From the UHGV virus genome UHGV-0204626: DNA of 39,893 nt; one strand, written 5' to 3'. The translations under genes were made by a program, and so were the position numbers. Below, one piece after another: positions 6,535 through 35,783 of this stretch. Each line of letters opens with the position of its first letter. Within the stretch, counting starts at the first letter, position 1. The notes below the pieces were generated by a model. It saw nothing but the letters and a program-made list of their open reading frames with translations. It did no database searches and was not told the origin of the DNA. This DNA is from a virus.

Positions 6535-7500
6535 TTAGTAGGTTATTTTTGTTGCGAATACTTCGCCTTTTACGATGGCTGTTATGATATTTTTAGCAAC
6601 ATCTTCTGATGCGACAACCTTGATAAGGTCAGCAAGTATTTTGTTATTTACTTCTTTCCGGTGAGCTTTATCCTTTGCTCTACGCTCTTCTTCGTCCTTG
6701 ATTCTTTTTTCTTCTGCTATTCTGGCTTGCTCTTTTGCTTCAGCCTCGCGCAGGATTCGTTCTGCCTCCTCCTGTGCTTTACGGCGTTCTGCTTCAATTG
6801 CCGCATGCTTTTCTCTTTCAGCTCGTTCTGCCTCTTTTGCTTCGCGCTGTGCTCGTTGCTCGGCTTCAATGCGTTCACGCTCTGCACGTTCCGCTGCGGC
6901 CTTAGCTTCTGCTTCTCGCCTTGCTGCTGCTTCAATTTCGGCTTTTGCCTTTGCTTCGGCTTCAGCTCTGGCTTTCTCTTCAGCTTCTCTTTTTAAGCGT
7001 TCTTCATGCTCTCGCTTTTCCTGCTCAGCTTTGAGTCTTGCCTCTTCTCTTTGGCGGTCAAATTCTCGATCCATCAAAATCGCTATTTCATGGTCAGACT
7101 CAATTTGCTTTGCGAGAGCTTCGGCTGCTGCCTTAGCTTCTTCTTCGGCTTTAATCCGCGCCTGTTCCTCTTCATAATCAGTAAGAGGCTGGCGTGCCTT
7201 GGCTTTCAGTTCATCAAGGCGATCGCGCACTGTCTTGCGGTTGTTATCAATTAGCTTTGGAATTTCCTTCAGTTCAGCAACAAGGTCTTTGCCAAGACCA
7301 TCGAGATATGTTTTCGTCTGCGCAACTTTATACGCCAGAGAAGCGATCTCCTTTCTGCCCTTTGCCGTTGTGATATCAGGCACAAAGGACATAACTTCAC
7401 GTTCAACCTTTTGAAGGATTTCTTCAATCTGGTCGGCAGACTGAAATACAGTCATTGCATTTGCTTTTTCAATAACAACTAAATCTGTTACTTCACTCAT
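6535..7500 (-). CDS. ER/K-rich coiled-coil protein of unknown function
   Basis: Long ORF (6535-7554 in the track); the likely start is the Met at 7500, preceded by GGAGGA. A structured N-terminal ~130 aa is followed by ~150 aa of near-pure E/A/K/R repeats (EAKAKAEIEAAARREAEAKAAAERAERERIEAEQRAQREAKEAERAEREK...) and a short C-terminal domain. Confidence 0.7.
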   Translation of the reverse strand: MSEVTDLVVIEKANAMTVFQSADQIEEILQKVEREVMSFVPDITTAKGRKEIASLAYKVAQTKTYLDGLGKDLVAELKEIPKLIDNNRKTVRDRLDELKAKARQPLTDYEEEQARIKAEEEAKAAAEALAKQIESDHEIAILMDREFDRQREEARLKAEQEKREHEERLKREAEEKARAEAEAKAKAEIEAAARREAEAKAAAERAERERIEAEQRAQREAKEAERAEREKHAAIEAERRKAQEEAERILREAEAKEQARIAEEKRIKDEEERRAKDKAHRKEVNNKILADLIKVVASEDVAKNIITAIVKGEVFATKITY

Positions 7501-16348: not shown

Positions 16349-16533
16349 ACGCCACAATTCAAACGATACCAGAGCTTCTTATCCAGACACGAGGCAATCA
16401 GACCGAAGTGGCGAGGATGCTTTCCTGTGCAAGAGGAACAGTGCTCAAGTACAACCGAGACAGCAAAGGCGAGCGTCATGTAATAGTTAACGGCGTCCTG
16501 ATGGTCAAACAGGGAAAGAGGGGAAGACGATGA
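16345..16533 (+). CDS. ninH: NinH-like protein
   Basis: 62-aa ORF with the core GNQTEVARML.C.RGTV.KY, as in lambda NinH. Confidence 0.75.
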   Translation: MNATIQTIPELLIQTRGNQTEVARMLSCARGTVLKYNRDSKGERHVIVNGVLMVKQGKRGRR

Positions 16534-17048
16534 GCATAAGAGAACTAAACCTCACCAAAGAACAGCACGATTGGCTGAATGGCTGGCTTGAACTGTGGGG
16601 CGCATGGGTTTATTCAGGCCGCCTGGAAAAGCGCATGAGCAGCGTAATAGCGAAATTCATGGAGAGCGTAGAGCCGGGAAGAGTTATGACAAGGCCAATG
16701 TGTAATGATGATGATGGAATGTTGATTTCTCAGGTCGTCGATTCCGTCATGTGCATTGACAAGAAAGCCTTTGGCATCCTCCTCAGCTACTACGCTCATG
16801 GTTCATCTAAGCGAGCAATTGCATCCTACTATCACGCGACTGCAAAGCCACGCAAGATGTGTGGACGTGGTGGCGAGGGATGGAGAAAACCTTCACTGGC
16901 AACCTGTAGAAACGAAATTGACGACATCCTGAAAGCGTCATTATTTGTTTTATACCAGCCGATGCAAAATGCTTTCAAAATGCGTAAACGTGTTGAGAAA
17001 GTTAAGCATGTTGCTGTTAAAAGCCTTGACATGCAATTAGCCATTTAG
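16530..17048 (+). CDS. Q: Late-gene antiterminator Q
   Basis: 172-aa ORF, last gene of the nin/early-right operon, immediately upstream of a promoter-terminator pair and the lysis cassette; Cys-containing; called by position and general resemblance to Q proteins. Confidence 0.7.
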   Translation: MSIRELNLTKEQHDWLNGWLELWGAWVYSGRLEKRMSSVIAKFMESVEPGRVMTRPMCNDDDGMLISQVVDSVMCIDKKAFGILLSYYAHGSSKRAIASYYHATAKPRKMCGRGGEGWRKPSLATCRNEIDDILKASLFVLYQPMQNAFKMRKRVEKVKHVAVKSLDMQLAI

Positions 17049-17056
17049 CCATAATT
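17026..17056 (+). promoter_or_regulatory. Candidate late promoter pR'
   Basis: -35 TTGACA (17026-17031) and a -10-like CATAAT/ATAATT (about 17050-17056) overlapping the end of Q. Confidence 0.45.
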
Positions 17057-17067
17057 AGAAGGTAAGC

Positions 17068-17107
17068 TGCCGTTAGTGACTCTTAAGTTGCAACGGTGGC
17101 TTTTTTA
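17068..17107 (+). terminator. Candidate tR' terminator (target of Q antitermination)
   Basis: Imperfect hairpin (GCTGCCGTT ... AACGGTGGC) followed by TTTTTTATTT just downstream of the candidate pR'. Confidence 0.45.
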
Positions 17108-17194
17108 TTTGCACAACAGGTAAGAGCATTGAACCCGCAGACCTCGCGGAATTGGCGGAAGGTGCCGCGCAGTGCTCTTATCGTTGTGGTGAAG

Positions 17195-17313
17195 CTCAAT
17201 GGCGAGCTAGCAGATAGGCGATAGTGAAAATACTAGTCATGTAGCTGACCGCCGCGCGTACTGCAATCGGCAGCGCACCGATGGAAGCCGGTTCGATTCC
17301 GGCCGCCACAACC
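17195..17313 (+). other. tRNA-like element (acceptor stem, D-arm and T-arm present; anticodon region aberrant)
   Basis: 5' strand TGTGGTG pairs with 3' strand CGCCACA; D-arm GCTC-aatggc-GAGC; canonical T-arm GCCGG-TTCGATT-CCGGC; but about 69 nt lie between the D-arm and T-arm instead of an anticodon/variable arm. Confidence 0.3.
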
Positions 17314-17556
17314 CAAACTGAGCCGTAGCCACTGGCTATCCTAGATTCATCAGTGATAGTTATGCTGCGGCCTTCTAAACATGACCTTCGTGAAAGCGGG
17401 TGGCAAGAGGCTGCGCTAACAACCTCATGCCGTTTTGCTCGTGCATATCGGTCACGAACAAATCTGATTACTAAACACAGTAGCCTGGATTTGTTCTATC
17501 AGTAATCGACCTTATTCCTAATTAAATAGAGCAAATCCCCTTATTGGGGGTAAGAC

Positions 17557-17880
17557 ATGAAGATGCCAGAAAAACATGACCTGTTAGCCGCCATTCTCGC
17601 GGCAAAGGAACAAGGCATCGGGGCAATCCTTGCGTTTGCAATGGCGTACCTTCGCGGCAGATATAATGGCGGTGCGTTTACAAAAACAGTAATCGACGCA
17701 ACGATGTGCGCCATTATCGCCTGGTTCATTCGTGACCTTCTCGACTTCGCCGGACTAAGTAGCAATCTCGCTTATATAACGAGCGTGTTCATCGGCTACA
17801 TCGGTACTGACTCGATTGGTTCGCTTATCAAACGCTTCGCTGCTAAAAAAGCCGGAGTAGAAGATGGTGGAAATCAATAA
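17557..17880 (+). CDS. S: Holin (lambda S type, class I, with dual-start MKM motif)
   Basis: 107-aa ORF essentially identical to my memory of lambda S ([39 protein letters not shown]...). Confidence 0.95.
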
Positions 17881-35579: not shown

Positions 35580-35720
35580 ATGAAAGTTAGAGACATCGCT
35601 CCATTAGGGATTCGTATCCCGCCAGAGATTAAAGAAAAATTGAAGGAAAAGGCTAAGGAGGAGGGCAGGTCTTTAAATTCAGAAATAGTGCAGCGTCTTA
35701 TTCGCAGCCTAAAAAGTTGA
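35580..35720 (+). CDS. arc: Arc-like ribbon-helix-helix repressor
   Basis: 46-aa product from the internal Met (MKVRDIAPLGIRIPPEIKEKLKEKAKEEGRSLNSEIVQRLIRSLKS), preceded by GAGGTGG; RHH motif GRS.NSEI. Confidence 0.75.
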   Translation: MKVRDIAPLGIRIPPEIKEKLKEKAKEEGRSLNSEIVQRLIRSLKS

Positions 35721-35783
35721 AGCCCCAACTGCTGGAACAGTCAGGGCTTCGGTATCGTAAAACCACGCATAGGAATTAACGAC

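Follow-up and report, generated by a model that had tools for sequence, protein, structure and literature searches.

Results

A tRNA-like RNA gene between Q and the holin gene

The virus genome UHGV-0204626 was analysed as one stretch of 39,893 nucleotides (nt), hereafter the window; it is a P22-like, CUS-3-like Escherichia coli phage or prophage. An open reading frame (ORF) of the Q antiterminator family (16530-17048, PF06530) and an ORF for a lambda-type holin (17557-17880, PF05106), both assigned with Pfam, flank the element studied here, at 17183-17315. A first-pass annotation had already placed a transfer RNA (tRNA)-like element between Q and the holin, and this placement was confirmed. 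pR', qut and the tR' terminator were located at ~17030-17106 by identity with the annotated Sf6 and HK75 records, and the element starts a few bases 3' of tR', on the strand of the late transcript. The element is a conserved, mobile, structured RNA of the plus strand, which has a tRNA body with an additional arm. On its sequence, it is best explained as the gene for a stable non-coding RNA of ~130 nt, built on a tRNA chassis. Its parts are as follows.

17183-17315, plus strand: whole tRNA-like RNA, from the acceptor 5' strand through the encoded CCA; 173 bits with the covariance model (CM) R1, RNAalifold and covariation
17183-17191, plus strand: acceptor stem, 5' strand GTTGTGGTG, pairing with 17304-17312 over 9 base pairs (bp; 8 bp according to ARAGORN)
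17193-17208, plus strand: D arm, AGCTC / loop AATGGC (with GG) / GAGCT; nearly invariant, 98.8% paired
17209-17264, plus strand: extra arm of 56 nt at the D/anticodon junction, defined by covariation and by the deletion test
17210-17213 and 17261-17264, plus strand: helix A, GCAG / CTGC; 3 of 4 pairs compensatory
17214-17216 and 17254-17260, plus strand: internal loop ATA / GCGCGTA, invariant in the 49-variant alignment
17217-17224 and 17245-17253, plus strand: helix B, GGCGATAG / CTGACCGCC; 7 of 7 pairs compensatory
17225-17244, plus strand: apical loop TGAAAATACTAGTCATGTAG, 20 nt, which holds the hexamer
17232-17237, plus strand: self-complementary hexamer ACTAGT, a candidate kissing-loop dimerisation site; palindromic in 49 of 49 variants
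17266-17282, plus strand: anticodon-type arm, ATCGG / CAGCGCA (17271-17277) / CCGAT; 5-bp stem and 7-nt loop, GCG at the anticodon position
17283-17286, plus strand: variable loop GGAA, conserved in the forms GGAA and GGGA; 4 nt long, as suits a class I tRNA
17287-17303, plus strand: T arm, GCCGG / TTCGATT / CCGGC; 3 of 5 pairs compensatory, loop invariant
17304-17315, plus strand: acceptor 3' strand CGCCACAAC (17304-17312) and encoded CCA (17313-17315); ARAGORN draws an 8-bp stem plus C-CCA

Covariation supports the fold and assigns it to the plus strand

Conservation was assessed on 49 distinct sequences from lambdoid and P22-like prophages, virulent Salmonella siphophages, a Pantoea phage and metagenomes, a set that had been enlarged to this number by pattern scans of IMG/VR and metagenomes. 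RNAalifold folded them into six helices, which are the five arms with the extra arm counted as helices A and B, and 18 of the 34 pairs were compensatory. With the structure as we defined it, 97.5% of the cells were paired, against 88.7% in shuffled alignments (0/500 shuffles); 21 of 38 pairs were changed on both sides, against 10.4 in the shuffles (0/500), and the covariation score was 0.272, against 0.114 (0/500). When the register was slid, only 25-50% of the cells were paired.

The helices contain 93 G.U cells and 3 A.C cells, an asymmetry which indicates that selection acts on the RNA of the plus strand. Indels of 1 nt occur in the loops of the variants, so that no reading frame is conserved, and the two ORFs that overlap the element (42 and 37 amino acids) had no Pfam match. 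It is very likely that the element is a functional structured RNA, and we assume with good confidence that it is built as a tRNA body plus an extra arm.

The body of the element is a class I cloverleaf

The four canonical arms of a tRNA are present, in order, and they covary. In the acceptor stem 5 of the 9 pairs are compensatory (e.g., GGTGAGGTG/CACCTCACC and TGAGTGGTG/CACCACTCA). The stem measures 9 bp in 41 of the 49 variants, the window copy can be read as 8 bp followed by C and CCA or as 9 bp followed by CCA, and a CCA lies at most 5 nt past the stem in 39 variants. The first-pass annotation had described an intact acceptor formed by TGTGGTG and CGCCACA. The stem is indeed there, although with 8-9 bp rather than 7, and both motifs exist; CGCCACA is found at 17304-17310, but TGTGGTG lies at 17185-17191 and not at 17195-17201, where the letters are CTCAATG, i.e., the coordinates of the 5' strand were 10 nt off. 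The D arm (GCTC-AATGGC-GAGC, 17194-17207) and the T arm (GCCGG-TTCGATT-CCGGC) were found as described. The middle pair of the T arm is CG in 24 variants, UA in 13 and AU in 10.

It had also been proposed that ~69 nt without an anticodon or variable arm separate the D arm from the T arm. The actual distance is 79 nt, and after the separate 56-nt arm it contains a canonical hairpin with a 5-bp stem and a 7-nt loop, followed by the 4-nt variable loop. The stem of this hairpin shows the compensatory versions ATTGG/CCAAT and ATAGG/CCTAT. When 17209-17264 (alignment columns 32-88) was deleted, ARAGORN with default settings called 43 of the 49 variants as tRNA-Arg (GCG in 39, UCG in 4), and the window copy became a tRNA-Arg(GCG) of 76 nt with a standard cloverleaf, an 8-bp acceptor and a C-CCA end. 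A control deletion with one end shifted by one base gave only 8 calls out of 49. The idea of a tRNA interrupted by an insertion thus holds in that an extra segment exists whose removal restores a tRNA; however, the anticodon arm is intact, and the segment, which branches off between the D and anticodon arms (tRNA position 26), forms an arm of its own that is conserved and covaries, and is not a disruption.

A class II fold, in which helix A is the anticodon stem and 17266-17282 the variable arm, was first adopted and then dropped in favour of a class I body with an extra arm. The Rfam tRNA model draws the copy of Pantoea phage PdC23 in the class II manner, with helix A as an anticodon stem carrying a 45-nt loop insertion and 17266-17282 as a long variable arm; in the same alignment the D arm of the element falls on the tRNA D arm. 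The class II reading was rejected because of the 5-bp/7-nt/4-nt geometry, because genuine tRNAs of jumbo phages match CM R1 with their anticodon arm aligned to 17266-17282, and because of the deletion test.

The anticodon-type loop was CAGCGCA in 42 variants, CATCGCA in 4 and TAGCGCA in 2, and the distant soil relative (locus L105; L numbers denote individual loci) has CACCGCA. Within the anticodon-like triplet only the wobble position varies (G, U or C, the C being that of the soil relative), with C35 and G36 fixed. The consensus C-A-N-C-G-C-A, present in 48 of 49 variants, places A at position 33 and C at position 37. U33 and a purine at position 37 are near-universal in tRNA anticodon loops, and A20 in the D loop is the main determinant for the E. 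coli arginyl-tRNA synthetase (ArgRS); the D loop of the element, AAUGGC, has 6 nt and no A20. By these established rules, A33, C37 and the absence of A20 make it improbable that the RNA decodes or is charged by ArgRS, despite its Arg-like loop.

The extra arm presents a self-complementary hexamer

A hexamer in the apical loop of the extra arm is self-complementary throughout the variant set, in five versions: ACTAGT (37 variants), GCTAGC (4), TCTAGA (4), TCGCGA (2) and ACCGGT (2). When the columns of the hexamer were shuffled, a palindrome in all 49 variants was reached in 0 of 20000 trials, and the maximum was 35. Inspection of the 49-variant alignment by eye revealed no consistent intramolecular partner. 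GCTAGC at the D-arm junction (17206-17211) was rejected as a partner, being invariant even where the loop reads TCGCGA or ACCGGT, as was the GCGCG of the internal loop, which does not covary with the palindrome; a pseudoknot between the anticodon-like loop and the internal loop likewise had no consistent covariation.

A sequence-specific DNA-binding protein would not tolerate the replacement of the sequence through which the palindrome is kept. The calculated free energy of the hexamer duplex, -4.8 to -8.3 kcal/mol, can be compared with -7.9 kcal/mol for GUGCAC, a hexamer of the dimerisation initiation site (DIS) of human immunodeficiency virus type 1 (HIV-1). The simplest reading of the palindrome is that two RNA molecules would form a kissing-loop homodimer, and for this reading we regard the balance as even.

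Standard detectors miss the element

ARAGORN called no tRNA or transfer-messenger RNA (tmRNA) in the window, with the default or the intron option. Only at its pseudogene threshold did it return a class II 'tRNA-Ala(ggc) with 38-nt intron' or a partial Arg(gcg) call. Rfam contains no family for the element, and a search at E<=10 over 16950-17600 gave only a weak partial match to tmRNA (20.2 bits, T arm and acceptor) plus chance matches. The first-pass annotation had named ARAGORN and Rfam as checks, and an empty outcome as a ground for giving up the element. Both were empty for the window copy at default or gathering settings, which taken alone speaks for dismissal, but the comparative evidence says otherwise. 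The only copy scored by the Rfam tRNA model above its gathering score of 29 is that of PdC23, with 37.4 bits in a small E-value search.

No account of the element was found in open-access text, whether searched by topic or for exact sequence strings; an earlier description elsewhere is possible. The C/A-rich CACAAC prompted a comparison with AgvB and AsxR, anti-small RNAs of enterohaemorrhagic E. coli prophages, which were rejected, being convergent small RNAs of 51-60 nt in another position, and the Pas small RNAs proved unrelated. Public records ON470589.1 (19946-20152), OP745620.1 and MH321493.1 carry spurious ORFs over the element ('polyubiquitin-A', 'hypothetical protein'), and RefSeq E. 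coli genomes are blank there.

The element is widespread and moves between leader regions

A megablast search found the flanks of the element in 252 phage records, among which the interior of the slot differs. A sensitive search with window positions 17170-17312 located the element itself in 112 phage records, and CM R1 found a single copy in each phage. The virulent Salmonella siphophages Skate, Akira, seszw and INT55 carry it at 92-95% identity, ST1UNAM and gmqsjt-1 at ~81%, and PdC23 at 79%. In unrelated phage types, whose flanks are unrelated, identity is kept at 79-82%. Out of 5426 complete E. coli genomes, 313 (about 6%) carry the element, and it is annotated in none of them. The soil relative L105 scored 75 bits with CM R1 and keeps the extra arm. 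A scan of species-representative genomes gave one match, in a metagenome-assembled genome of Cellvibrionaceae. Among pattern searches for distant relatives, ATGGRAGNNNGTTCGAWTC returned mostly tRNAs of jumbo phages and AATGGNGAGCTAGNNNATAG no further members.

Three settings were recognised. In the window and its relatives the element follows tR'. A second group of phages carries it after nutL, ~25 nt before an N-like ORF (L050, L100, L102, L107, L114, L118). Skate-like phages have it in an 800-nt noncoding island antisense to tail genes, downstream of a promoter-like TTGACA-17-TAGATT and with a tRNA-Ile or tRNA-Met(CAT) on the same strand 100 nt further on. The first-pass suggestion of a structured RNA in the late leader was therefore right about the RNA and too narrow about the place, since copies are also found in pL/nutL-N leaders and, in virulent phages, in antisense noncoding islands. 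As a cassette, the element travels from one phage leader region to another.

Canonical tRNAs are not a regular companion: one was found within 1 kb of the element in only 8 of 140 loci, including a tRNA-Thr 127 nt downstream in L112 and L136. The survey of the neighbourhoods revealed no protein gene consistently linked to the element.

A conserved stem and interchangeable cassettes

Two further features lie immediately upstream of the element.

17066-17106, plus strand: tR' late-leader terminator, hairpin GCTGCCGTT...AACGGTGGC plus T run; the identical sequence is annotated as tR' in Sf6 and HK75
17112-17188, plus strand: upstream stem module of ~19 bp, CACAACAGGTAAGAGCATTG (17112-17131) / CAGTGCTCTTATCGTTGTG (17170-17188), with a variable interior (17132-17169)

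The tR' terminator forms the left edge of the cassette slot. The long hairpin that the first-pass annotation had noticed upstream was recovered as AAGAGCATTG (17122-17131) / CAGTGCTCTT (17170-17179), within the stem module. This stem is kept around at least 8 unrelated interiors; 93.8% of its cells are paired, and both sides have changed in 6 of 18 pairs, where shuffles give 1.2 (0/500). Its 3' strand shares its last 6 nt with the 5' strand of the acceptor. The result is an X...X'...X layout, with CACAAC at 17112-17117, GTTGTG at 17183-17188 and CACAAC at 17307-17312, and the same layout is present in the pL-leader group and in lambda.

In lambda, tR' is followed by the same upstream stem and then by GTTGTGCTGAA, a cassette of 72 nt and CACAACCCAAACTGAGCC. 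The upstream hairpin and the two ends (TGTGGTGAA ... CCGCCACAACCC) are also present in CUS-3, where they enclose another interior, of ~200 nt. Sf6, SPN9CC, Oslo and others fill the slot with a tRNA-Asn and a tRNA-Thr, in agreement with the earlier remark that some lambdoid phages carry tRNA genes between Q and the lysis genes, and HK75 and a few others carry the element of the window. The slot between tR' and AACTGAGCCGTAGCC can be followed as a site of interchangeable cassettes in lambda (L151, NC_001416 ~285-470), CUS-3 (L003 ~650-1010) and Sf6 (L001 662-817). In CUS-3 it is annotated only as 'boundary sequences', and both lambda and CUS-3 keep the GTTGTG...CACAAC ends of the window. The lambda and CUS-3 cassettes were considered as homologues of the element and rejected, as neither matches CM R1.

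The lambda post-tR' cassette (TTAAGCGAATACCGGAAGCAGAACCGGAT...GCGTCATCGCCGCC, L151 ~355-430) recurs inside the upstream stem of ST1UNAM (L005 ~2400-2500), an unrelated virulent Salmonella phage, which indicates that cassettes move between different stem-enclosed slots. Perfect T-arm-like hairpins (GCGG-TTCGATT-CCGC and GCAGAG-TTCGATT-CTCTGC) occur in the upstream-stem interiors of L086 and L018, ~100 nt ahead of the element; these hint that the upstream module can itself hold tRNA-derived pieces.

In the pL leader, L118 shares the flanks of the lambda N leader, with nutL followed by AGCATTCAAAGCAGAAGGCTTTGGGGTGTG ... CACACCACCAAAGCTAACTGACAGGAG-ATG, so that the element takes the place of what lambda has inside its N-leader hairpin, a known RNase III site. 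Lambda (L150 330-560, minus strand) and L118 (8250-8500, minus strand) have the enclosing stem and the flanks in common, nutL ... GCTTTGGGGTGTG / CACACCACCAAAGCTAACTGACAGGAG, and the well-known lambda RNase III site thus sits in a cassette slot. In another locus with the element in the pL leader, L087, the lambda cIII thermoregulator element (RF01804) scored 57 bits at 6913-6972 on the minus strand. In the human-gut contig L115 (60-330), the element has a lambda nutL, with boxA and boxB exact, on its 5' side and the late-region CCAAACTGAGCCGTAGC on its 3' side; the contig is a natural recombinant across the element or else a chimeric assembly.

The islands of Skate (L006 2250-2850) and Akira (L007 2200-2830) have the order promoter-like site, stem-enclosed cassettes, tRNA-like RNA, a cassette TTAATATCCAGC...GCTGGATGTTAA, and tRNA-Ile(AAT) or tRNA-Met(CAT). 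Weak matches of permuted-tmRNA type (27-29 bits, below gathering) were seen upstream in the island at Akira L007 2223-2363 and ST1UNAM L005 2000-2123.

Elsewhere in the window, the Rfam scan detected a full-length sar RNA gene (RF00262, 81 bits) at 35715-35782 on the minus strand. As sar RNA is an antisense regulator of the P22 immI region, it marks the window as a P22-like phage.

Discussion

A processed tRNA mimic as the preferred reading

The best explanation overall, and one that we consider about evenly poised between right and wrong, is that the element specifies a processed, non-decoding tRNA mimic that dimerises and acts in trans. The RNA would be transcribed within the Q-dependent late transcript, and in other phages within the pL transcript or from a promoter of its own. 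Host enzymes of tRNA maturation (RNase P, 3' trimming) would excise it, RNase III might help at the long flanking stems, and the tRNA shape would lend it stability, as in engineered 'tRNA scaffolds'. The excised RNA would not decode. Two molecules would pair through the hexamers of their extra arms into a kissing-loop homodimer, and the dimer would act in trans on a tRNA-binding factor, its likeliest role being that of a decoy or inhibitor of a tRNA-targeting nuclease of host or prophage defence, or of a tRNA-processing enzyme.

The decoy function is a tentative analogy, and more doubtful than the reading as a whole. It was suggested by the niche, which is shared with phage tRNAs (Thr, Asn, Ile) of the kinds that such nucleases cut. 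In Salmonella, tRNA-Thr, Ile and Ser are cut by anticodon nucleases that prophages carry (PMC13043305), and one proposal is that changes in the anticodon loop let phage tRNAs escape such enzymes (PMC10264068). If the proposal is carried further, the element could represent a class of mobile phage RNAs that has not been described before. Such an RNA, in effect a tRNA scaffold of natural origin, would be excised from leaders as a homodimer and, being bivalent, would decoy or inhibit an oligomeric immunity nuclease that targets tRNA, or another tRNA-binding factor; the slot would be a general plug-in site for small RNAs, shared even by the lambda N and late leaders. This extended proposal is speculative, and we would hold it possible rather than probable.

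Several points weigh against a processed, trans-acting mimic. All its steps of maturation and function are inferred. The acceptor stem of 8-9 bp (~16 bp in the pL-leader group) is unlike the 7 bp that RNase P normally measures, and the upstream and acceptor stems compete for GTTGTG, so that the tRNA fold may not be the sole conformer. At the gathering threshold Rfam left the element unmatched in the window, and none of 16 other variant loci scanned in the same mode reached the tRNA gathering score. The soil relative has the extra arm but no palindrome, and dimerisation is perhaps not universal. No tRNA-Arg-specific phage-defence nuclease was identified in this analysis, and a cis-acting role is just as compatible with the leader position, directly after nutL or tR'. 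The genome-reduced seszw mutants listed all retain the element, which is uninformative; an argument for essentiality from this retention was dropped, because the reduction method was aimed at annotated genes only.

Alternative explanations

The main rival is a cis-acting leader module, whose tRNA shape and stems serve only as signals for RNase P and RNase III. The cuts would part the antitermination RNA (nutL or the qut/tR' leader) from the mRNA for N or the lysis genes, and would set the translation or stability of the latter, much as RNase III cleavage of the lambda N-leader hairpin affects the translation or stability of the mRNA downstream. The six copies between nutL and an N-like ORF, the L118 copy in the very stem that lambda uses for its N-leader hairpin, and the window copy immediately after tR' all lie where such a module is expected, and the covarying ~19-bp upstream stem is long enough for RNase III. 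However, the copies in the antisense noncoding islands of virulent siphophages adjoin a tRNA and have no mRNA downstream, and a further copy lies next to baseplate-like genes on the opposite strand. Nor would a mere cleavage signal require that the anticodon-type loop and the internal loop be invariant or that a palindrome be preserved in five versions, and lambda and CUS-3 put unrelated sequence in the same slot. We consider the cis-acting module unlikely, though worth keeping in view.

Less probable still is a genuine decoding tRNA-Arg (GCG, UCG or CCG) from which the 56-nt insert is removed after transcription, and which would supplement CGN decoding or replace a host tRNA-Arg cut by a nuclease. 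Such a tRNA would account for the ARAGORN calls after removal of the arm, for a triplet that varies only at the wobble position, for the CCA encoded in most copies and for the use of the same slot by real phage tRNAs. To our knowledge, the only introns that leave tRNAs in bacteria are self-splicing group I (or II) introns, of more than 200 nt and in the anticodon loop. The insert of the element has 56 nt, lies between the D and anticodon arms at position 26, shows no group I features and matched no Rfam intron at E<=10; the intron mode of ARAGORN was empty at default thresholds. The strong constraint on its loops and internal loop would be unexpected for a discarded spacer, and A33, C37 and a D loop without A20 do not suit decoding. 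Splicing to a tRNA-Arg is thus possible but without a known mechanism, and we think it improbable.

The first-pass annotation had also considered a decayed tRNA. A decaying pseudogene, or a recombination scar carried between the 'boundary sequences' at which lambdoid phages recombine, would suit a slot that is a mosaic junction, with flanks so labelled by the CUS-3 annotators, and that different cassettes fill; L115 resembles a recombinant across the element, and point changes abolish the ARAGORN call after arm deletion in 6 of the 49 variants. This explanation is contradicted by the covariation, as every helix is kept by compensatory changes (21 of 38 pairs, with 97.5% of the cells paired), and by the excess of G.U over A.C (93 vs 3), by the 79-82% identity in unrelated phage types despite unrelated flanks, and by the 75-bit soil relative. 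It is very improbable. Finally, a DNA-level element (a protein-binding palindrome, an att or other recombination site, or an origin) or a small protein-coding gene is hardly credible: the hexamer is a palindrome as DNA (ACTAGT etc.), CACAAC stands at both ends (17112-17117 and 17307-17312) and ORFs are annotated over the region in some GenBank records, but the palindrome is wholly replaced (ACTAGT, TCGCGA, ACCGGT) with its self-complementarity kept, the helices accept G.U and not A.C, as expected of selection on the RNA of one strand, every reading frame is broken by 1-nt indels, and the overlapping ORFs of 42 and 37 amino acids lack a Pfam match.

Significance and comparison with known systems

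Few genomes have been studied as closely as those of lambdoid and P22-like phages, and still the element is unannotated, is missed by tRNA finders and in some records is wrongly marked as an ORF. As a tRNA with five arms, one of which has a palindromic loop, it adds a new architecture to the short list of tRNA mimics, and it is small enough for direct structural and biochemical tests. Since its niche is shared with phage tRNAs thought to counter anticodon-nuclease immunity, it offers a concrete candidate for RNA-based counter-defence. The stems that flank the lambda N-leader RNase III hairpin and the lambda post-tR' region emerge as exchangeable cassette slots, which gives a handle on the shuffling of small RNAs among leaders.

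With a canonical class I tRNA, in particular tRNA-Arg (RF00005), the element shares the acceptor, a D arm with GG, the 5-bp/7-nt anticodon-type arm, the 4-nt variable loop, the TTCGATT T arm and CCA; it differs by its 56-nt fifth arm at position 26, its 8-9-bp acceptor, A33/C37 and a 6-nt D loop without A20. The phage tRNAs that follow Q/tR' (phage 21; tRNA-Asn and tRNA-Thr of Sf6; ileZ-argN-argO of Stx phages) have the slot, the strand and the downstream flank AACTGAGCCGTAGCC in common with it, but are ordinary tRNAs of 75-76 nt that every detector recognises. L118-type copies stand where lambda has its N-leader hairpin, between nutL and N and within the GCTTTGGGGTGTG / CACACCACCAAAGC stem, whereas the lambda interior is an unrelated sequence of ~100 nt that does not match CM R1, and the window copy lies in the late leader.

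Among non-decoding RNAs, tmRNA (RF00023) also mimics the acceptor and T arm of a tRNA, and the weak partial match noted above falls on that part; it reached 20.2 bits against a gathering score of 47, and the element has no mRNA-like ORF and no pseudoknots, and the tmRNA mode of ARAGORN was empty. The bacterial Y RNA YrlA likewise imitates the acceptor/T-arm half of a tRNA without decoding. Its ends belong to the Ro-binding stem rather than to the acceptor stem, whereas those of the element form the acceptor stem; no rsr gene is nearby, and no family of Y-RNA type was among the Rfam matches at E<=10.

Dimerisation through a loop palindrome has a precedent in the HIV-1 DIS, where a 6-nt palindrome (GCGCGC or GUGCAC) in a hairpin loop mediates kissing-loop dimerisation. 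The element similarly has a 6-nt self-complementary sequence in an apical loop, which changes only within self-complementarity, but this loop has 20 nt and not 9, and its dimerisation is a prediction from sequence. ROOL, GOLLD and OLE are reported to be homo-oligomeric RNAs of bacteria and phages (PMC12286853); ROOL and GOLLD are far larger than the element.

Phage T4 species 1 and 2 RNAs (rnaC and rnaD), from the T4 tRNA cluster next to tRNA-Arg, are likewise phage-encoded RNAs of ~120-140 nt; they are stable and lie among tRNA genes, and rnaC has a T arm and an acceptor-like stem. With CM R1, however, rnaC scored 16.3 bits, in the range of ordinary tRNAs, and rnaD matched only over a 20-nt fragment (6.5 bits); no counterpart of the extra arm or the palindrome was seen in either. 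The engineered tRNA scaffold for recombinant RNA reportedly devised by Ponchon and Dardel is said to be a tRNA body that bears a foreign hairpin, the chimera being processed and stabilised in the manner of a tRNA. There the insert replaces the anticodon loop, whereas the element, which is natural and evolving, keeps its anticodon arm and branches at the D/anticodon junction. Taken from its sequence, the element appears to be a new architectural variant of tRNA mimics, widespread and unannotated, with a candidate dimerisation feature; T4 species 1 and 2 are closest to it in kind, and engineered tRNA scaffolds are closest in design.

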